A DNA stretch of 34,729 nt from an uncultured Candidatus Saccharibacteria bacterium (GTDB lineage: Bacteria; Patescibacteriota; Minisyncoccia; UBA6257; 2-01-FULL-56-20), in the NCBI GenBank assembly GCA_964363455.1, contig CAYIIM010000003.1, positions 1 through 34,729 on the forward strand, in the 5' to 3' direction. A model generated the notes under the pieces. The model did not search any database. It was not told the origin of the DNA and was given only the letters and a program-made list of their open reading frames with translations. Both the position numbers and the translations under genes were made by a program. Below are positions 5,726 to 14,641 of this stretch, piece after piece. Each line of letters starts with the position of its first letter. Position 1 is the first letter of the stretch.

Positions 5726-6826
5726 ATGACGATTTTGATTGTAGTAATTGGTTTATCTTTATTGATTTTGGGCCACGAATGGGGTCATTTTTTTGCGGCG
5801 AAAAAGTTTGGACTCAAAGTGGATGAGTTTGGTTTTGGTTTTCCGCCAAGAATTTTTGCGTGGAGACCGAAATCAAAATTGAAGAAAAAAGGCGACCCTG
5901 CCTCCGCTTTGGCTACTGCGTGGCAAAGTGAGACGGAGTATAGTTTCAACTGGTTGCCGTTTGGAGGGTTTGTGAAAATCGCGGGAGAAAATGATCGAAT
6001 GACGGGGGATATGGATAAGTTAAATAACTTGACGGCGCCAGAGAAAAAACGAATTTTTTTGTTTCAGCCGGCTTGGAAGCGAAGTGTGATTATTTTGGCG
6101 GGAATTTTTATTAACTTTGTGATTGGATGGGTTTTGTTTTCGGCGGTGGCGATGGTTGGCACGCCGGCAACGATGATAATTTCGAGCGTTCAGGAAAATT
6201 CTCCCGCCGAGTTGGCTGGGATTAAGCCGGGGGATTTAGTTAAAGATTACAAAAATGCGGATGAGTTTATTTCTTTCGTAAATCAAAATCGGGGAAAGGA
6301 AGTTAGTTTTGCGGTTTTGCGGGGATCGGAAGAGGTGACGATAAAAGCGACGCCGCGGGCGAAGATTATTGAAGGAGAAGGCGGTTTGGGAGTGGGTTTG
6401 GATTCGGGTCAAGAAAAGACGAGTTTTTTTAAGGCTTTGGGGGCGGGTTTTAAGCAAACAGTTTTCGTGACTAAGGGAACGTTTGCCGGTTTTTATATGA
6501 TGATTAAGGGATTGGTGACTTCCGGAAAAGTGCCGGAGGATATTGCGGGGCCGGTAGGGATTTTTTCAGTGGCAAACGATATCGGGAAGATCGGCTATAT
6601 TTATTTAGTGAATTTGATTGCTTTGATTTCGGTCAATTTGGCGGTTTTGAATTTGATTCCATTTCCGGCGCTCGATGGCGGGCGGTTTGTGATGATTTTG
6701 GCGGAAAAAATTCGCGGAAAGGCGGTGCCGGTGAAAGTTGAAGGTTGGATTAATGGAGTGGGGTTTGCGTTGCTTCTGCTTTTGATGGTAGTGATTACCG
6801 CGAGAGACGTGGTGAGGCTTTTCTGA
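5726..6826 (+). CDS. rseP: M50 family site-2 intramembrane metalloprotease with PDZ domain
   Basis: HEWGH, EFGFGFPP, LPFGGFVKI, SPAELAGIKPGD (PDZ), NLIPFPALDGG. Confidence 0.95.
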   Translation: MTILIVVIGLSLLILGHEWGHFFAAKKFGLKVDEFGFGFPPRIFAWRPKSKLKKKGDPASALATAWQSETEYSFNWLPFGGFVKIAGENDRMTGDMDKLNNLTAPEKKRIFLFQPAWKRSVIILAGIFINFVIGWVLFSAVAMVGTPATMIISSVQENSPAELAGIKPGDLVKDYKNADEFISFVNQNRGKEVSFAVLRGSEEVTIKATPRAKIIEGEGGLGVGLDSGQEKTSFFKALGAGFKQTVFVTKGTFAGFYMMIKGLVTSGKVPEDIAGPVGIFSVANDIGKIGYIYLVNLIALISVNLAVLNLIPFPALDGGRFVMILAEKIRGKAVPVKVEGWINGVGFALLLLLMVVITARDVVRLF

Positions 6827-6827
6827 T

Positions 6828-6862
6828 TAGGTTTTAGCCACTAGCCAATAGGGTTTAGGCAA
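6828..6862 (+). repeat. TAG-led heptamer array after rseP
   Basis: TAGGTTT TAGCCAC TAGCCAA TAGGGTT TAGGCAA. Confidence 0.85.
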
Positions 6863-6890
6863 GAATAAATAATGAGAATGCTTTGATGCG

Positions 6891-6919
6891 TTGATTTATT
6901 GCGGTTATATTGATATTAT
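6891..6919 (+). promoter_or_regulatory. putative promoter of the tRNA locus
   Basis: TTGATT, 17 nt ending TGA, TATTAT, about 20 nt before the outer tRNA 5' end. Confidence 0.55.
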
Positions 6920-6939
6920 TTGGGAACTAAAAGTTGTAT

Positions 6940-7174
6940 TGCCGGGTCGCCTGCCTGCGCAGGCAGGTCTAATGGTATGGAGTACCATACTGGCGGCACT
7001 CGCTCGGAAATATGTTTTGCTGGGGGATCGTCTAAAGGTAGGACAGCGGCCTTTGAAGCCGTGAATCGGGGTTCGATTCCCTGTCCCCCAGCAAAACATA
7101 TTTCGCTCGCTCATTTGCTAGTAGGACAGCGGCCTTTGAAGCCGTGAATCTTGGTTTGATTCCAGGCCCGGCAG
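6940..7174 (+). pseudogene. outer, interrupted tRNA-Gln(TTG) in three pieces (6940-6949, 6968-6976, 7123-7174)
   Basis: Joined pieces give TGCCGGG TC GTCT AATGGT AGGAC A GCGGC CTTTGAA GCCGT GAAT CTTGG TTTGATT CCAGG CCCGGCA G, a full cloverleaf with paired acceptor stem; the T-loop reads TTT rather than TTC. Confidence 0.8.
7021..7091 (+). tRNA. tRNA-Gln (anticodon TTG), CCA not encoded
   Basis: TGGGGGA/TCCCCCA acceptor stem, GTCT/GGAC D-stem, GCGGC-CTTTGAA-GCCGT anticodon arm, CGGGG-TTCGATT-CCCTG T-arm. Confidence 0.95.
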
Positions 7175-7197
7175 CATTTTGAGTTTTTTAAAAGATT

Positions 7198-7226
7198 GCG
7201 CCCGTTTGGTTTGTCCAAACGGGCGC
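7198..7226. terminator. hairpin between convergent tRNA and orphan gene; likely terminator
   Basis: GCGCCCGTTTGG-TTTGT-CCAAACGGGCGC, 12-bp perfect stem, 5 nt from the minus-strand stop. Confidence 0.7.
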
Positions 7227-7231
7227 TGTGG

Positions 7232-8293
7232 TTATGGCTTTGGGGCGAGTTGCTTGATTTTTTCTGCGGCTTTCTCGCTTTCGATTTCGGCTTGGCGGAT
7301 GGAGGTAAGGCGAGCGTGTTCTTGTGTTACCAGTTCATGCTCCTTTAAAAACCACGCCGCTCTTGGACCAACATAGCAAGCTTCATCGAGGTTCCTGACT
7401 CTCCTATCTTTTTGGACGGGATGGCGATACTGCTGAAGACTGTCTCGGAGCGCGATTTGGCGCAGTTTGGCGAGGCAGGCTTTGTCGAGCGAGAGAATCC
7501 ACTCGCGCAGAACATCAAGACGCTTTATATCGACGAGCACTCCAACCATCCAAGGTTTCGCTGAGTTGAGTCGAGCGCGCATCGTGCGGTTGTGCTCCCT
7601 GATCTCTTTCTGCTGTTCCGCGCCCAGCCAATTCGGTACATTGCTTTCTTTCCAGCCCCAGATAAATCGAGCTAGGTTGACGAGAAATTCATGAGCAAGT
7701 TTCTCGTTGTGTGAGGATTCTTTTCGGCAGGTAAGATTGCGAATTGAACCTTGACTGAAGACGCTAGAACTTTCTTCAGAGCGAAAAAAGTTCTGGATGA
7801 TTGGGAAAAAGCGTTCGGATGTAAAAAGCACCTTCCAGAGATCGTTGAAGTCATCGCCGTTTCGTCCGCCACCTTTCAAGCTTACCTCTTTGAAGACATT
7901 CAGGCATAGCACATCGAAGGCCTTTTGCGCGATGATCCGACGTAAATCCGAGAGGGACTTTTCTGTAATCAGTCCTTCGTTGTCGCTCCATCGATAATAA
8001 CGGTCTCTGTCTTCGGGTTTTCGGAGGATATTGAAGGCGTCGGCCCAGCCATCGGCGATATTGAAGTAGAAAATGAGACGGTCGATTGAGTCATACGTCT
8101 TTTCATCGTGATGGCGGCGACCTAAGGAAACTGTAAAACCTGCGTGGAGAAGACCAAGCATTTCCTCGATAGACTTGGCCGATTCCCAGCGTTCGAGCAG
8201 TTCCGCCCAATTTCGAATAGGGCGGATTTCGCGGGCGAGAAGCGGGTGGGTGGTTTCTTTCGCTTCGGTGACTTCGGTGGTATTTGTGGGCAT
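7232..8293 (-). CDS. hypothetical protein (353 aa, probably helical)
   Basis: Long ORF preceded by AAGAAAGGGG and TTGACA-18-TATAAA (8379-8350); no motif recognised. Confidence 0.8.
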   Translation of the reverse strand: MPTNTTEVTEAKETTHPLLAREIRPIRNWAELLERWESAKSIEEMLGLLHAGFTVSLGRRHHDEKTYDSIDRLIFYFNIADGWADAFNILRKPEDRDRYYRWSDNEGLITEKSLSDLRRIIAQKAFDVLCLNVFKEVSLKGGGRNGDDFNDLWKVLFTSERFFPIIQNFFRSEESSSVFSQGSIRNLTCRKESSHNEKLAHEFLVNLARFIWGWKESNVPNWLGAEQQKEIREHNRTMRARLNSAKPWMVGVLVDIKRLDVLREWILSLDKACLAKLRQIALRDSLQQYRHPVQKDRRVRNLDEACYVGPRAAWFLKEHELVTQEHARLTSIRQAEIESEKAAEKIKQLAPKP

Positions 8294-8512: not shown

Positions 8513-11500
8513 ATGAGCAAAGAAGCAAGGGTTAGTTTAAAAAACTATTTCGGGAGTTGGACTAAAATTGGGATTTTGGTTGGGGTTTTGGTGTTGGCAT
8601 TGATTGCTTTTTTCGTTAGCCAAGAGGCATTTATCACCGCAGAGGTGACGGATTTTTATCCTTCGACATGTTTGGGATCTTGGCAGGATCCAGAGAAAGC
8701 CCAAGGGGAGCCAGAGACGTTTAGGTTTCCGGAGAAGGAATTGAATAATGATAACTCGGCTTACTTGGATAAGGCGGAAGGAGATATTTATTGCGGACAG
8801 TTTTTGCCAGGTGATTATGTCGGCGAAGGCGAGATAAAAGGAGTGGGATTAACACTTGTGTGGAATGTACAAGGCTTGCCAGAATTAGTTTTACCAGAAC
8901 CGACGGTGACGCCGGAGACAACTTCGACGCCGAACGCGGATGAAGATATTCCAACTAGCGAAGGGGCGGTGATCAAAGACGTGATTGAAGCTCCAACCGA
9001 GCGAACTAAAGAAGAGTCGAGTAATGGTGATTCCGCAAAAGAAGAACCAGCGACCCCCCCGAGTTCTTTGAATCGATTTTTAGTTCCGCTGGTTTTGGCG
9101 CAGTCAGAAGAGCCATCTGCGCCGGCATCGACAGTTGAGCCAGCTCCGGTTCAGGCGACTGAGCCGCCAGTGATTTCAAATCCAGAGCCGATAAATGAGC
9201 CGGTAGTTGGGGCGCCAAAAGAAACGGAGGTGGAGAAAAATCCGCCGATAAACGAAGAATTGAAAAATGAAAATGGAGAGGAAATAAAACCGGAAGAGGT
9301 GAAAATCGGCGAGGTGTTAGCGGAGCCGGTGACGGAAATTATCCACGAAGCGCCGAAAGTGGTGGACGAAAGCTTTTTGAGGATTAGTTATAGTTTGGAC
9401 GGACAGGAGTGGAAAGAGATTTCTAAAATAGGCGCGGCAAATTGGTTTCATTACACCATGCCTTTGCCGATTAATTCTTGGGAGGATTTAAGAAAGGCGC
9501 AATTTAGGATTGAGGGGATTGAAAACTCTTTAGAAACTTTTCCAGAAATATATCTAGATGGAATGTTTTTGGAGGTGCAGTATGAGAAACCGCCAATTGT
9601 GGAAATTTTTGAGACGGCGGAGGTTGTGCAAGAGCCGGTGCGGGAGGTGGAGTTGCCGGAGGGAGTACCGCTAATTGTGATTCCAGAGGGTGAGGGATTA
9701 AAGCCAGCGCCGACAGATGAGAAAAATTTTTCACCGAATGAACGCCCTAGTTTTGAATTTGACTTGGAGAATTTGCCGTCGGGAGACGCTAGTGGCGGAA
9801 CTTCGAGGGCGGGACCGAGGGGAAATATTGAGAATAGAGAATTGAGTATAAGAGAAGAAAGCATGGCCGAAAGCGGAATTGCAAATAAAAGAGAAGGGAG
9901 GGGAAAAAATGGAGTTTCAAAAAACTCCAATTTTGGTTTTTTGCGACCCGGTTTTTTATTAGGGAGATTCGTTTTGAGCGTGGGAGATTTTAATTTTTTG
10001 AATCGGGCGCGGGCGCAGAGTGATGCCGGGGTAAAGGTTTTGAACGAAGCCAATCCGGTCATAGCGCAAGTAATTGATTCGGCGGGTGAGCCGACGGCAA
10101 TCGCACCGACGATTTTGACGATTAACAATAAGTTGCGAGTAAACGTGCCGGAGCCGAAGAGATCTTTGAGGCCGGGAATATATAAACTTAGAGTTTGGGT
10201 TTTGCGAGAAGGAAAAGTTTTTTTTAGCGAGACGGAATTTACTTGGGGGGTTTTTGCGATCAATTTTGACAAATCGATTTATACTTTAGGCGATAAGGCA
10301 AATGTTGGAATGGCGGTACTTGATGATGGTGGGCATACGATTTGTGATGCGCAGATAAGTTTGCGAGTGGTTTTGCCTTCTGGAAGTGAAGTGAATTTTT
10401 CGACGCGGGATGGATCCATAATTTACAGCGATACTTGCGGACCGGACAATGTGACACAGGAGGCGGATTATAAAACCAATTTTGCGGTCAACGCGACGGG
10501 GACGTACAAAATTTTTGCGACGACGAGGACGGCGAATGGATTGCGGGACTTTGAAGACAAGTTTGAGGTTCAGGAGAATCCACTTTTTGACGTAGTACGT
10601 TCGGGGCCGACGCGTATTTTTCCACCGGCGGAGTATCGGGTTTCGATGCGAATAACGCCAAAAGAAGATTTTGATGGAATTGTGAAAGAGGTGGTGCCGG
10701 CGGAGTTTCGAGTAGTGGCAAACGAGTCGATTGACGAAAGGGTGGTGGGCGAGGAGAGGATTTTAATTTGGAGTTTGGATTTGAAGGCGGGGGAGAGGCG
10801 GGAGATTAGTTATATTTTCAAAGCGCCGGATATTTCGCCGGAGTTTTATAAACTTGGGCCTTTGGGTTTTTATGAAAATAGTGATGATATTCGGCCAATT
10901 TTTTCGGAGATAAGGAGTTGGCAGATTGCGGCGGATGTGGTGGTAAACGATGGAAGCGCGATGGTTTATGGCGACGCGGCTAATGACAGCACTTCGACGG
11001 TTCGATATATTTCCGCAACTAGCACGACTGGATCGGCAGTGACAACAGTGGCGGTGGGGGCGGGAACAACAAATTTAACGGAGATAAAACATGTGAGTTT
11101 GAAGGCGGCGCCGACGAGAGTAGAGTATGTTTCGGGACAGTTACTCGCTAATGGACGTTTAGACTTTATAAAGGCGAGTGGGACAACTTGGGGGAATTTG
11201 TTTAATGTTTCAAGTAGCGCTGTACAGATTTGTGACAACTCGTTGGGCGCCTGTAATCAAACTTTTGATTTGGCGTATGAACAATTATCGGGTCGGGCGT
11301 TAATGGTTTACGGGAGTTCCAGTAATGATGGAATAATTTATTATCGAACTTGGGATGGAAATGCCACTTCCTCTGAGTCGAGTTTTACTTTCAACAACGG
11401 TTCGTCGAATGATACAAATTGGGTGCGATTGGTGCCAAAAGGAGATCGGCTCACCGATAATCGATCAAATGAGATGATGCTCTTGGTGGCGGATGCCGGA

Positions 11501-14500
11501 GGTGGTCTTTTCGCGGCTTATTGGGACGGGACGCAGTTTTTGACTTCAACGACATTAGACACAATGCCGACGGCTAATGGCCGAGCGTTTGATGGAGCCT
11601 GGGAAACAGTTTCGGGAAATTTTATCGCGGCTTACGCTTCCTCATCAAGTTCTTCGACTTTGGAAATTTTTGCGTACAGAAAATTTAGCGGCGGAGCATG
11701 GAGCGCGCCGAGTTCAACTGGTCCGGGCGATTTTTTCACTGATTTTTCTGGTAATGTTTCTACTGGCATGTGGGTGTCTTTAGCAGCTGATCCATTAAGC
11801 AATAGAATTGCCGGGGGTTTTGAATATCAAATTTCTACAAATATTGGAGCAAGCGAAGCGGAGGGGGTGTGGAAAAGAGATGGAACGAGTGAAGATTGGA
11901 ATGATATTTCTGCCCAAGGCGTTGCCCTTGAATCGGATGAAGTTTTTGGGCAGGTTCAAGCTGGATTTGAAAGGTTTGGGACAAGTGATGGAACTTCGAC
12001 GGCAATCTTTACTATAAATACTGGATCTTTCTCGGATACGGCTGATTATATGACCTGGATACCGAGTACAGGTATGGCGGCGGCGATTGATATTCCAGGT
12101 GGTTGGACGGATGACGGTAATCATCGGAAATTAGTTCCAAGTCCAAATCGAGATGATATGGTTTGGTTAGGTGTTGACTCAGATAATGATTTAAATGATC
12201 AGTATTGGCACGGCACGGGCTGGAACGCTACCGGAGCAGAATTAAGTACGGCGGTGGCCACGACGACGGATGGCAACGCGATTCCAATGGAAAATAACGC
12301 GTTTGATTTTGCTTGGCGACCCTACTCGCCGTGGTCGCTCAACTGGCGATGGTATAACGGTACGTCAACAGCAGATACGCCCCCAGATGCTTTGGCGGCG
12401 GAAAATACTTCAAGCTCGATTTCGAGTTCATCGATGAAGTTGCGATTAAGGTTTAATGTGGCTGAAGAAGGTGGCAACGACCAAACGGACGCGAGAAAAA
12501 AACTGCAATGGACAACAAGTACAACGCCTGAGGCGTCGTCAACGGTTTGGTCGGACGTTGGGAATGTTGGGAGCTCAACGATCTGGCGATATTTTGATCC
12601 GGATACGGGTAGCGCGGTGGGCAATGATGGGACGGTGGTAGCGGCGACCGTACTTTCGAGTTCGACAGCGGCGGGTTGGTGGAATTTAAGCAAAGACGCG
12701 ACTGCGAACGCAAACATGGATCACGCTTCAACTACCATTCGAGAGCTGGAATTTCCAATTGAGGGCAACAACGCGGACACGGGGTATACTTATTATTTTA
12801 GGATGTATGATGTAGATCAAGGATCACCGGTTTATCGTTTTCAGCCGAGTTGGCCGACAACGCCGTGTAATTCGGCGGTAGCTTGCAGTTATCCAAGGAT
12901 ATTTATTTCTCCACCAGTGCCTTCGGTGACATCGGTTAATTTGAATGGGGGGAGCGCGATCACACTACTTCCAAATACTACGACCACGATTTATGTTAAT
13001 TTTACGGTGACGGACGCAAGCGGTTGCAGTGATGTTTTTACCAGCGGGAATGTGACAACCACTATTTACCGCTCAGGAGTTTTGGGGACTTGCTCTTTGG
13101 ATGATCTGAATTGTTATCGGGTGACAACTTCGACTCATAACTGCTCGGGAGGGAGTACTGCCAATGGCACATCGACTTTTGACGTTTATTATTTTGCTCA
13201 AGCGACAGATGGAACTTCTGCTTTTCCATCCCAATATTGGGAAGCGTTGGTGGAAGCAAGAGATGGAAGTAATAATACAACGACGGCAACTTCGACCGGC
13301 GTCGATGTGAATGGACTTTTAGCGATTGAGCTTGTCACTTCAACTATTAATTACGGATCGCTTAATCCAACGAGCACGATGGGGGCGGTCAATCGACTGA
13401 TACCGATTAGGAATGTTGGGAATTCTTCAAACACGATTCAGGTTTATGGATCCGCTCTGAAGAAAGGATCAAATTCAATCGCGACTTCTTCACAGCACTA
13501 TGCTTCATCTTCCTTTGTTTTTGGCGGAAATGAAGGGCAAATTTCAAACACGGCGACGACAATTTCGGGACTGACTGTTTTGCCTCATACCTCGGTTTTA
13601 AATACGATTGGAAGTTGGTCAGGTGTGACGGCGTTGCCGAGTACACTTCTTTATCACGCAGTGGCTGGATTTGGTGATTATATTTATTTGGTTGGGGGGG
13701 CCCCGGGTGGCTCGGGAACGACTACAACTGTAAAGTATGCTGCGGTGGCGGCGGACGGAACTTTAGGGAGTTGGACAAATACGGCGGCCTTACAATCAGG
13801 GATCGTGGAGCATGGAGCCGTTTCTTCAAATGGTTATATGTATGTTGCAGGCGGGGGAACTACAGCTTCTAATTTCGCAACGGCAACAACGACAGTAAAA
13901 TATTCGGCGATTGCGGCTGATGGGACTTTGGGAGCATGGAGTAACACTACGGCTCTCACCAGTCCAATTATGGAGCACGAAATAGTGGTTTATGGAGGAA
14001 GAATTTATTCAATGGGTGGATTGGTGGCTTCTAATACTGGAACCACAACGGTTAAATATGCTTCTATTAGCGCAGATGGAACGGTTGGGTCTTGGAGTGA
14101 CACGACCGCTCTTTCCGCCGCGCTTTATGAATTTGAGGCGGATGAATATAACGGATATATCTACGTGACGGGAGGAGAGGTGGCGGGCAGTGCGGTTTCG
14201 ACCGTTTATTACGCGAAGATTCAAAACGACGGAACGCTTAGTGCTTGGACAACGGGGACGGCTCTGTCAACAAATCTGAATGATCATTCGGCTGTGGCGA
14301 GTAATGGGTATTTGTATCGGATTGGTGGACATACTGCTGCTGACGCTTCAAGAACCAGCACGGTGGCTTACTCAGTGTTGAGCGCAAATGGATCTATGGG
14401 ATCGTGGACTGATACAACAGTTTATCCATTCACAAATGCTTATGGAGAGGAGGTTGTTTCTCGGGGATATGTTTTTGAAGTGAGCGGATTTCCGGGTGGG

Positions 14501-14641
14501 GTGACAACAACGGTTAAGTCTGCCCCAATTCTTAACGGGCTGAGTGAAGCGAATACGTTTTGGGGGTTGGGGCTAAGTGATTACGTACCGACCGGAACTT
14601 ATACGGGTTCGACGACTTTTATTGGCGTCTTTTCACCTTAG
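8513..14641 (+). CDS. giant modular surface protein: N-terminal TM, Pro/Glu linkers, beta-rich domains, shared scaffold with inserted six-blade Kelch propeller
   Basis: 2042 aa; hydrophobic N-terminus; six YxYxxGG-type repeats with G-x-W-x-x-TT-AL turns (~13600-14535); IYRSGV/NCY/SSQHYA/FWGL motifs shared with the 624 and 329 aa ORFs. Confidence 0.85.
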   Translation: MSKEARVSLKNYFGSWTKIGILVGVLVLALIAFFVSQEAFITAEVTDFYPSTCLGSWQDPEKAQGEPETFRFPEKELNNDNSAYLDKAEGDIYCGQFLPGDYVGEGEIKGVGLTLVWNVQGLPELVLPEPTVTPETTSTPNADEDIPTSEGAVIKDVIEAPTERTKEESSNGDSAKEEPATPPSSLNRFLVPLVLAQSEEPSAPASTVEPAPVQATEPPVISNPEPINEPVVGAPKETEVEKNPPINEELKNENGEEIKPEEVKIGEVLAEPVTEIIHEAPKVVDESFLRISYSLDGQEWKEISKIGAANWFHYTMPLPINSWEDLRKAQFRIEGIENSLETFPEIYLDGMFLEVQYEKPPIVEIFETAEVVQEPVREVELPEGVPLIVIPEGEGLKPAPTDEKNFSPNERPSFEFDLENLPSGDASGGTSRAGPRGNIENRELSIREESMAESGIANKREGRGKNGVSKNSNFGFLRPGFLLGRFVLSVGDFNFLNRARAQSDAGVKVLNEANPVIAQVIDSAGEPTAIAPTILTINNKLRVNVPEPKRSLRPGIYKLRVWVLREGKVFFSETEFTWGVFAINFDKSIYTLGDKANVGMAVLDDGGHTICDAQISLRVVLPSGSEVNFSTRDGSIIYSDTCGPDNVTQEADYKTNFAVNATGTYKIFATTRTANGLRDFEDKFEVQENPLFDVVRSGPTRIFPPAEYRVSMRITPKEDFDGIVKEVVPAEFRVVANESIDERVVGEERILIWSLDLKAGERREISYIFKAPDISPEFYKLGPLGFYENSDDIRPIFSEIRSWQIAADVVVNDGSAMVYGDAANDSTSTVRYISATSTTGSAVTTVAVGAGTTNLTEIKHVSLKAAPTRVEYVSGQLLANGRLDFIKASGTTWGNLFNVSSSAVQICDNSLGACNQTFDLAYEQLSGRALMVYGSSSNDGIIYYRTWDGNATSSESSFTFNNGSSNDTNWVRLVPKGDRLTDNRSNEMMLLVADAGGGLFAAYWDGTQFLTSTTLDTMPTANGRAFDGAWETVSGNFIAAYASSSSSSTLEIFAYRKFSGGAWSAPSSTGPGDFFTDFSGNVSTGMWVSLAADPLSNRIAGGFEYQISTNIGASEAEGVWKRDGTSEDWNDISAQGVALESDEVFGQVQAGFERFGTSDGTSTAIFTINTGSFSDTADYMTWIPSTGMAAAIDIPGGWTDDGNHRKLVPSPNRDDMVWLGVDSDNDLNDQYWHGTGWNATGAELSTAVATTTDGNAIPMENNAFDFAWRPYSPWSLNWRWYNGTSTADTPPDALAAENTSSSISSSSMKLRLRFNVAEEGGNDQTDARKKLQWTTSTTPEASSTVWSDVGNVGSSTIWRYFDPDTGSAVGNDGTVVAATVLSSSTAAGWWNLSKDATANANMDHASTTIRELEFPIEGNNADTGYTYYFRMYDVDQGSPVYRFQPSWPTTPCNSAVACSYPRIFISPPVPSVTSVNLNGGSAITLLPNTTTTIYVNFTVTDASGCSDVFTSGNVTTTIYRSGVLGTCSLDDLNCYRVTTSTHNCSGGSTANGTSTFDVYYFAQATDGTSAFPSQYWEALVEARDGSNNTTTATSTGVDVNGLLAIELVTSTINYGSLNPTSTMGAVNRLIPIRNVGNSSNTIQVYGSALKKGSNSIATSSQHYASSSFVFGGNEGQISNTATTISGLTVLPHTSVLNTIGSWSGVTALPSTLLYHAVAGFGDYIYLVGGAPGGSGTTTTVKYAAVAADGTLGSWTNTAALQSGIVEHGAVSSNGYMYVAGGGTTASNFATATTTVKYSAIAADGTLGAWSNTTALTSPIMEHEIVVYGGRIYSMGGLVASNTGTTTVKYASISADGTVGSWSDTTALSAALYEFEADEYNGYIYVTGGEVAGSAVSTVYYAKIQNDGTLSAWTTGTALSTNLNDHSAVASNGYLYRIGGHTAADASRTSTVAYSVLSANGSMGSWTDTTVYPFTNAYGEEVVSRGYVFEVSGFPGGVTTTVKSAPILNGLSEANTFWGLGLSDYVPTGTYTGSTTFIGVFSP

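Follow-up and report, generated by a model that had tools for sequence, protein, structure and literature searches.

Introduction

Genomic islands and prophages integrate into tRNA genes, restore the 3′ end of the gene and leave a partial duplicate, and small palindromes that insert into genes are known as REP elements, as Rickettsia palindromic elements and as the GC-rich or double-hairpin elements of fungal mitochondria. The mobile open reading frames (mORFs) of fungal mitochondria, described for atp6 of Allomyces and for atp6, atp9, cox2 and nad3 of Glomus, carry a foreign replacement for the end of the gene in which they reside, and the native end is left as a remnant that is not expressed (PMC3630166). 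In phage T4, the free-standing GIY-YIG homing endonuclease SegB is located in a tRNA cluster, where its cleavage of the recipient promotes the inheritance of its own gene and of the flanking tRNA region (PMC2330249). The present study concerns a tRNA gene that lies within another tRNA gene, both for glutamine, at positions 6940–7174 of a 34,729-nt stretch of DNA, referred to here as the window, from contig C3 (CAYIIM010000003.1) of an uncultured Candidatus Saccharibacteria bacterium. In the window an insert of 146 nt splits an outer tRNA-Gln gene in its D-loop and contains a complete inner tRNA-Gln. We consider it likely that the locus is the scar of a resident tRNA-Gln gene that was invaded by a tRNA-targeting GIY-YIG cassette bringing a replacement tRNA, and that the window holds a derivative of such a cassette from which the nuclease open reading frame (ORF) is missing.

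In archaea and algae, disrupted tRNA genes (with non-canonical introns, split or permuted) are repaired at the RNA level by the bulge–helix–bulge endonuclease and a ligase (PMC4390854, PMC3978253, PMC3293823), and a study of insertions in the rRNA genes of the candidate phyla radiation (CPR) describes GIY-YIG proteins in non-intron insertions, but the term tRNA does not occur in it (PMC11270868). A literature search that did not include subscription journals found no published account of a nuclease cassette lying within a bacterial tRNA gene.

GIY-YIG cassettes at the tRNA genes of relatives

The host genome (G000) comprises 0.92 Mb in 81 contigs with 44% G+C and is 96.6% complete; 33 tRNAs were called in it, and the inner gene of the window is the sole tRNA-Gln among them. 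When positions 6900–7200 of the window were used as a query against 61 related genomes, the matches fell on the tRNA itself and, in several relatives, also on a separate piece corresponding to the outer 5′ part with its palindrome. Positions 6937–6977 are 100% identical to a stretch of 41 nt that precedes a GIY-YIG ORF in the relative G040. In both G040 and G038, a 5′ tRNA-Gln fragment (positions 1–26, with the same palindrome at 10/11) is followed by an 82-aa GIY-YIG ORF and then by a complete tRNA-Gln, while in G039 and G049 the ORF runs into a complete tRNA-Gln whose acceptor stem is extended by an inverted repeat, and the 3′ tRNA-Gln relic that follows this inner tRNA starts with TAGGAC, exactly as in the window. 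The cassette ORFs, of about 82 aa, score 52.9–59.7 bits against the Pfam GIY-YIG model (cut-off 22.6 bits), and the catalytic positions Tyr..Tyr-(V/I)-Gly..Arg..His-Asn..Glu are conserved across 36 aligned ORFs. At the loci in G039 (L030) and G049 (L032) the reading frame of the nuclease stays open up to the tRNA and continues through it; excision of the tRNA from such a transcript would leave an mRNA without a stop codon.

The exact motif TCG-palindrome-TCTAA was searched in species genomes, and the identical palindrome was found at the identical D-stem site in 52 of them. At 33 of the 52 loci the ORF lies between the palindrome-bearing relic and a tRNA-Gln about 255–353 nt downstream (two of the contigs stop short of the tRNA); at three, the ORF and the tRNA are followed by a full-length palindrome-bearing copy, at one the ORF is located after the tRNA, and at 15 there is no ORF. 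A complete tRNA (Gln; Glu in three cases) stands 45–161 nt past the palindrome at 14 of the 15 ORF-less loci, and it is with this group that the window belongs. A purine-rich match is present 3–10 nt ahead of the ORF start at 15 of the 33 loci; the notion that the AGGA of the tRNA serves as the ribosome-binding site of the ORF was kept as a weak idea, since only these 15 have a match.

A second survey was made independently of the palindrome by selecting loci on GIY-YIG protein similarity (E of 1e-12 or better) in 201 genomes of the order, 50 of which contain a close homologue. Thirty loci were fetched, and at 14 a tRNA on the same strand starts less than 200 nt downstream of the ORF, with none in range at the remaining 16. 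The tRNAs at the 14 loci are for Gln (four), Ala (four), Glu (three), Leu, Cys and Gly; many of the loci have 5′ relics with a hairpin, arms that flank the tRNA, and 3′ relics, and the palindrome is present at all four Gln loci. From these comparisons, cassettes directed at tRNA genes appear to be widespread in the order, whose members are small-genome bacteria of the CPR/Patescibacteria type. The junctions lie in the D-arm in the nests read: the 5′ relic ends at about position 26 in the type-A loci, and within the D-loop in seven of the 17 arm-bearing tRNA-Gln nests (16 loci and the window, with junctions placed by reading). At L006 and L014, in the same family, tRNA-Gln genes whose acceptor stem is of the outer type were found without interruption, and these correspond to the empty targets expected of a homing element.

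The host genome itself contains related loci. No GIY-YIG match was found on the contig of the window; matches are present on contigs C26, C23, C53, C30, C24 and C7, with apparently intact small ORFs on C26, C23 and C53. At C30:4700–5104, a tRNA-Leu(CAA) 5′ relic with a 20-nt variant of the palindrome is followed by a GIY-YIG ORF that two stop codons interrupt and by a full tRNA-Leu, and at C53:1–400 a 5′ tRNA relic with a different hairpin is followed by an intact GIY-YIG ORF and by a tRNA-Cys cut by the contig end.

Anatomy of the nested locus

The features of the locus are listed in Table 1. The acceptor strands of the outer gene, TGCCGGG (6940–6946) and CCCGGCA (7167–7173), are perfectly complementary. 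The triplet GTA stands at both insert junctions (6975–6977 and 7121–7123), and the insert borders can therefore be shifted by 3 nt. The inner gene is called as tRNA-Gln(ttg) by ARAGORN and reaches 61.5 bits on the bacterial tRNA model RF00005 (cut-off 29 bits). The two genes are identical over 30 nt (7038–7067 and 7121–7150) and differ in their acceptor stems and in their T stems. A perfect 14-bp inverted repeat (7007–7020 and 7092–7105) extends the 7-bp acceptor stem of the inner tRNA to a helix of 21 bp, its right half sharing base 7092 with the discriminator, and a 7-nt direct repeat, CTCGCTC (6999–7005 and 7107–7113), is found one base outside the inverted repeat on each side. The original prediction, which was made from the window alone, had proposed this arrangement, and its coordinates for the outer acceptor strands, the insert, the junction triplets, the 30-nt identity, the 14-bp stem and the direct repeat all hold, as does the presence of a complete inner tRNA-Gln(TTG) with the extent given in Table 1; the differences between the acceptor and T stems were borne out when the two genes were compared. 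A further stem of 8 bp (6989–6996 and 7115–7122), also predicted, can be drawn with three G:U pairs, but it is absent from the minimum-energy fold, which has a small local hairpin at about 6974–6991 instead, and it is weak. The 235-nt stretch as a whole folds at −113.1 kcal/mol (z = −6.87), a value that was equalled by none of 200 shuffled sequences.

Table 1. Features of the nested tRNA-Gln locus and its immediate surroundings, in window coordinates.
Feature	Position	Strand	Remarks
Sigma-70-like promoter matches, two overlapping	6883–6919	+	9/12 hexamer matches each; consensus match only
5′ relic of outer tRNA-Gln	6940–6976	+	Acceptor 5′ strand, positions 8–10, palindrome, D-stem, D-loop to about position 21
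Palindrome in 5′ relic	6950–6967		18 nt, perfect, CCTGCCTGCGCAGGCAGG, between D-stem positions 10 and 11
Left arm of insert	6977–7020	+	44 nt; local hairpin (about 6975–6990), CTCGCTC, left half of 14-bp inverted repeat
Inner tRNA-Gln(UUG), complete	7021–7092	+	Discriminator G at 7092; ARAGORN, RF00005
Right arm of insert	7093–7122	+	30 nt; right inverted-repeat half, CTCGCTC at 7107–7113, insert 3′ end
3′ relic of outer tRNA-Gln	7123–7173	+	D-stem 3′ strand, anticodon arm, T-arm (loop TTTGATT), acceptor 3′ strand
GC-rich hairpin, 12 bp	7198–7226	−	Terminator-like for convergent gene 7232–8293

Two promoter-like sites were found where 0.5 would be expected from shuffled sequences, and none was found near the locus other than this overlapping pair upstream of the outer gene, where a single promoter before the outer tRNA had been predicted. 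This promoter probably drives the outer 5′ relic and the inner tRNA as a single transcript, and the GC-rich hairpin behind the nest may, on the plus strand, also end it. Downstream of the nest, the plus strand of the window contains an ORF of 2042 aa (8513–14641).

State of the outer gene

The joined outer halves are recognized by ARAGORN as tRNA-Gln(TTG) only when the 146-nt insert and the 18-nt palindrome are both deleted; deletion of the insert alone gives no call, even with lowered thresholds. On this point the original description of the outer gene as a tRNA-Gln split by an insert needs correction. Of the outer gene in its present state, RF00005 matches just the 3′ half, with 21.2 bits, short of the cut-off. 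The outer T-loop has T at the otherwise invariant C56, a base that is found there in none of 63 distinct tRNA-Gln genes of relatives; position 56 is C in the 60 of these that are in register, and the other three are shifted by one base and contain the same TTCGA motif. The change from TTC to TTT in the T-loop, which had been read as decay, is upheld by this comparison. In relatives, the outer halves are truncated or are interrupted by further hairpins in the anticodon or T loops. Because of the hairpin in the D-stem, the T at position 56 and the broken outer halves of relatives, the outer gene is read as a dead relic, and the inner tRNA-Gln is predicted to be expressed and to be the working gene.

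The second proposal of the original prediction, an excisable intron containing a tRNA, finds no support. Neither the splicing endonuclease EndA (PF01974) nor the ligase RtcB (PF01139) had a match in the host genome, where the control searches did match, although absence from an incomplete genome is no proof; excision is unlikely because neither enzyme was found. No match to the group I intron model RF00028 was obtained in the window at the gathering score (50 bits), nor around the locus with E up to 10. The same model does detect a group I intron, at 57.8 bits, in another tRNA of this genome. That tRNA, at C2:12520–12815 on the minus strand (locus L140:567–798), has the intron in its anticodon loop and is not called by ARAGORN; a palindrome of the same kind as that of the window is present in a 3′ tRNA relic at C2:12085–12102, about 450 nt from it on the opposite strand.

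Nests without a nuclease ORF and their arms

Nineteen tRNA-Gln loci of relatives were examined within ±130 nt. Five of them (G010, G017, G024 and, in the genus of the window, G002 and G004) are nests with hairpin arms. At one (G051) a hairpin occupies the corresponding D-loop position of a 5′ copy, and a simple hairpin occurs there at L070 as well; one locus is of the G040 type, and no fragments are seen within this range at the other 12, though two of these retain the C-terminal part of an ORF immediately before the tRNA. As in the window, the outer relics of G002, G004 and G024 have an acceptor stem of the TGCC type and the inner genes one of the TGGGGGA type, and both types are found as ordinary uninterrupted genes in the family. 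The inner copy differs little from the outer one at L052, L077 and L090. Between G002 and G004 the arms are similar, but they could not be aligned with those of the window, a result that suggests separate insertions at one site in a single genus. At least two of the ORF-less nests derive from ORF-bearing ones: the left arm at L069 retains the start of the ORF (its first codons), and G002 retains a middle piece. For the window, an ORF remnant in the arms, proposed on the basis of a frame leading into the inner tRNA like the ORF tails of G039 and G049 and of a short His-x-Gly match seen by eye, was rejected as unproven.

The extension of the acceptor stem is discrete, with 7–16 extra pairs in 15 of 71 locus tRNAs and at most three in the other 56. 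In all arms GC adjoins the tRNA on both sides, and the remaining arm sequences differ between loci yet stay complementary; complementarity is therefore maintained, whether by selection or by the way in which the element is made.

The original prediction had proposed to look for the flanking stems around other tRNAs and for an empty site at the rseP–tRNA-Gln locus of relatives. The arms gave only self-matches in the host genome. Only in the host genome and in G002 is rseP next to a tRNA-Gln nest, and in G002 it is inverted; in G003, G004 and G006 rseP has no tRNA within 1.5 kb, and no syntenic empty site was found there.

The palindrome in the 5′ relic had been taken for a second insertion that marked the decay of the outer gene. 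That it is inserted holds; its recurrence at one D-stem site in 52 species genomes, among them the CPR lineages Nomura-, Jorgensen-, Kaiser-, Staskawicz- and Levybacteria and WWE3, indicates a recurrent palindromic mini-element and not random decay. The host genome contains 12 copies or variants of 18–20 nt within tRNA relics and intergenic DNA, including one in the tRNA-Leu 5′ relic on C30 and one in a 3′ relic after a tRNA-Arg on C7. In the latter (C7:26044–26100), the relic directly follows the intact tRNA-Arg(CCG) and the palindrome is located in its T-loop after GGTTC; a 3′ tRNA relic directly after an intact tRNA-Thr(UGU) at C37:10010–10055 has a hairpin of the CCGCCAGCTGGCGG type at the corresponding place, in the T-loop after GGTTC. 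At L113, one palindrome is inserted at the centre of another. At L064, two palindrome-bearing 5′ relics in succession precede a single inner tRNA-Gln and a single 3′ relic, an arrangement suggestive of more than one invasion.

Proposed origin of the locus and alternative explanations

In relatives, the autonomous form of the proposed element sits in or next to the D-arm of its target tRNA and consists of a minimal GIY-YIG ORF of about 82 aa followed by a replacement tRNA. This tRNA either joins a supplied 5′ part to the 3′ part of the resident gene or is supplied whole, with an inverted repeat that extends its acceptor stem. The pieces of the resident gene remain as relics, the 5′ relic nearly always with the short D-stem palindrome, and this relic retains the promoter and becomes the leader of the new transcript. 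In the scheme that we propose, the nuclease would cut naive tRNA genes in or near the D-arm, and the cassette would be copied in by repair, that is, by homing, with the conserved tRNA halves as homology; the functional tRNA that it carries would make the disruption of a single-copy essential gene harmless. The resident promoter (6883–6919 in the window) would then drive the relic, the ORF where present and the tRNA. The inner tRNA could be freed by RNase P and a 3′ endonuclease, possibly after cleavage of the 21-bp helix by RNase III, a step that is conceivable because RNase III is encoded in the host genome. The palindrome in the relic would break the target site as well as a direct repeat that could otherwise delete the ORF, and would in this way stabilize the insertion. 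The window would represent a late stage, in which the ORF has been lost and the inner gene has become fixed as the tRNA-Gln of the cell. An element of this kind may be described as an endonuclease element of the homing type in which a replacement for the target is included; because the window is without a nuclease, it is assigned to no defined family. The idea of a mobile hairpin that brings a replacement tRNA is thereby supported in essence, through the GIY-YIG cassettes of relatives, but the mobility of the ORF-less copy as a hairpin is not, since its arms are single-copy.

Cleavage, homing and expression of the inner tRNA are steps that we infer from sequence, and several observations weigh against this origin. 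The window lacks a nuclease ORF, and when its arms were aligned with six cassettes no significant similarity to the ORFs was obtained, the alignments consisting of D-loop bases only (z of 4.5 or less; 1.1 or less for the right arm). The arms occur once in the host genome, where they match only themselves, and a 22-nt piece across the joint of left arm and tRNA had no match in the metagenome contigs. The 3′ relic is strikingly intact (it has 51 nt, its T-stem is compensated, and 30 nt are shared exactly with the inner gene), so that a recent insertion, gene conversion or some selection is needed to account for it. The CTCGCTC repeat around the 14-bp inverted repeat resembles the target duplication of a transposon rather than a product of homing, and was not seen in the other nests read. 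Mismatches in the arms are G:T in five cases and A:C in two (symmetric count, p = 0.45), which does not distinguish pairing at the RNA level from pairing at the DNA level. Finally, no contig spanning the nest was present among the Logan contigs of four public runs; in these runs the flanks (6612–6880 and 7127–7500) are covered 3–6×, and the tRNA part reaches 10–100× the flank depth, swamped by the tRNA-Gln loci of other organisms. The public runs listed numbered 22, with no RNA source among them.

Alternatively, the whole 146-nt insert or only a core of 100 nt, made up of the inverted repeat and the tRNA, might itself be a non-autonomous hairpin resembling a miniature inverted-repeat transposable element with tRNA cargo, and not a dead deletion derivative; it would move by transposition, perhaps mobilized in trans by one of the small GIY-YIG nucleases of the genome. 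A perfect 14-bp inverted repeat with a 7-nt duplication has the form of terminal repeats and a target duplication, the three apparently intact GIY-YIG ORFs on C26, C23 and C53 lie outside the window, simple hairpins occupy the same D-loop spot in G051 and L070, and a palindrome within a palindrome is seen at L113. The element is nevertheless present as one genome copy and in none of the metagenome contigs, where several copies would be expected, other nests do not show a direct repeat of the CTCGCTC type, and the inverted repeats are unlike ends recognized by a transposase because their sequences differ widely between loci. We regard such a transposing hairpin as unlikely. A local rearrangement without any mobile element, in which deletion or slippage acted on tRNA-Gln genes duplicated in tandem and the hairpins are repeats of unrelated origin, would explain the 30 identical nucleotides and the near-identical copies at L052, L077 and L090, but it is improbable: the inner and outer genes differ in their acceptor and T stems, a nested order is not produced by tandem duplication, and the same D-arm junction recurs in many genomes in company with a nuclease ORF.

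If the insert were instead an excisable intron containing a tRNA, both tRNAs would arise from one transcript, and the outer halves would be joined or would pair as a split tRNA. The single promoter-like region ahead of the whole unit, the arms, which can pair and hold the outer halves together, the nearly intact outer 3′ half and the perfectly complementary outer acceptor strands would all suit such an arrangement; against these stand the absence of a group I signal at the site, although Rfam detects one in another tRNA of the genome, the lack of PF01974 and PF01139 matches in a genome that is 96.6% complete, as a protein-spliced intron would need, the 18-nt hairpin that splits the D-stem, the replacement of C56 by T, and the truncated or further interrupted outer halves of relatives. 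Taken together, these make the intron very improbable. A metagenome rich in related tRNA-Gln loci, with its tRNA depth of 10–100 times that of the flanks and no contig spanning the nest, would favour a chimera assembled from the tRNA-Gln loci of two strains that occur together. If the strains had been joined through the shared 30-mer, however, the product would be a hybrid tRNA, whereas the nest retains the 30-mer twice; many independent assemblies show this nested order too, so that a chimera is hardly credible. That the nest is due neither to chance nor to an assembly artefact is argued most strongly by the recurrence of its architecture in genomes assembled independently.

A wider hypothesis is that CPR bacteria harbour a hitherto undescribed class of 'cut-and-rescue' selfish elements directed against tRNA genes, in which a minimal GIY-YIG cutter of the resident single-copy gene, a short palindrome that disables the remnant for good and a rescue tRNA act together, and ORF-less hairpins such as that of the window are still mobile in trans. 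We consider this generalization doubtful. If it were true, the hairpin-armed rescue tRNA would make the host dependent on the element, and whole tRNA genes would be mobile cargo that is repeatedly replaced by horizontal transfer in these lineages.

Significance and comparison with known systems

Should the proposed origin be correct, an essential single-copy tRNA gene would have been overwritten by a selfish element that delivers a working copy, as a natural counterpart of engineered 'cleave and rescue' and as a parallel, in bacterial tRNA genes, to the mobile ORFs of mitochondria. It would account for the tRNA fragments and odd hairpins scattered through CPR genomes and for the under-calling or misplacement of genes in these genomes by tRNA finders, and it would provide a route by which tRNA genes with foreign acceptor stems enter a lineage. 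The nucleases of about 82 aa would be among the smallest site-directed DNA endonucleases, and whether they recognize their target by sequence or by DNA structure would become testable.

Genomic islands and prophages resemble the cassettes in being mobile, in being directed at a tRNA gene of which they contain a part, and in that a functional tRNA remains. Those elements use integrases, measure kilobases and duplicate the 3′ part of the gene, whereas here there is no integrase, and the insert measures from 146 nt to about 450 nt and provides either the 5′ part of the tRNA or all of it. The palindrome of the window is, like the REP, Rickettsia and fungal elements, repeated and inserted in genes, but it is far shorter and occupies one exact tRNA position in 52 species. 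SegB of phage T4 is larger than the ORFs of about 82 aa and has a DNA-binding part. It can be likened to the cassettes as a GIY-YIG endonuclease tied to tRNA genes (PMC2330249), but it lies between intact phage tRNA genes, with no nested or fragmented tRNA. The disrupted tRNAs of archaea and algae resemble the window in being interrupted outside the anticodon (in the window, in the D-loop) and in having insert ends that can pair (PMC4390854, PMC3978253, PMC3293823). They differ in that the interrupted gene of the window looks dead and the insert supplies the tRNA, with neither repair enzyme found in the host genome.

The mORFs of fungal mitochondria share with the cassettes a free-standing endonuclease ORF (LAGLIDADG; GIY-YIG in atp9) in an essential gene whose function is kept by a hybrid or replaced gene (PMC3630166). 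In the mORFs, the target is a mitochondrial protein gene and not a bacterial tRNA gene, and the C-terminus is replaced, whereas the tRNA cassettes replace the 5′ end or the whole gene, which leads to a gene within a gene; a bare catalytic-domain nuclease of about 82 aa, hairpin arms and a recurrent palindrome likewise set the tRNA cassettes apart. By analogy of arrangement, and with these differences, the mORFs appear to be the closest analogue of the element that probably gave rise to the nested tRNA-Gln locus.

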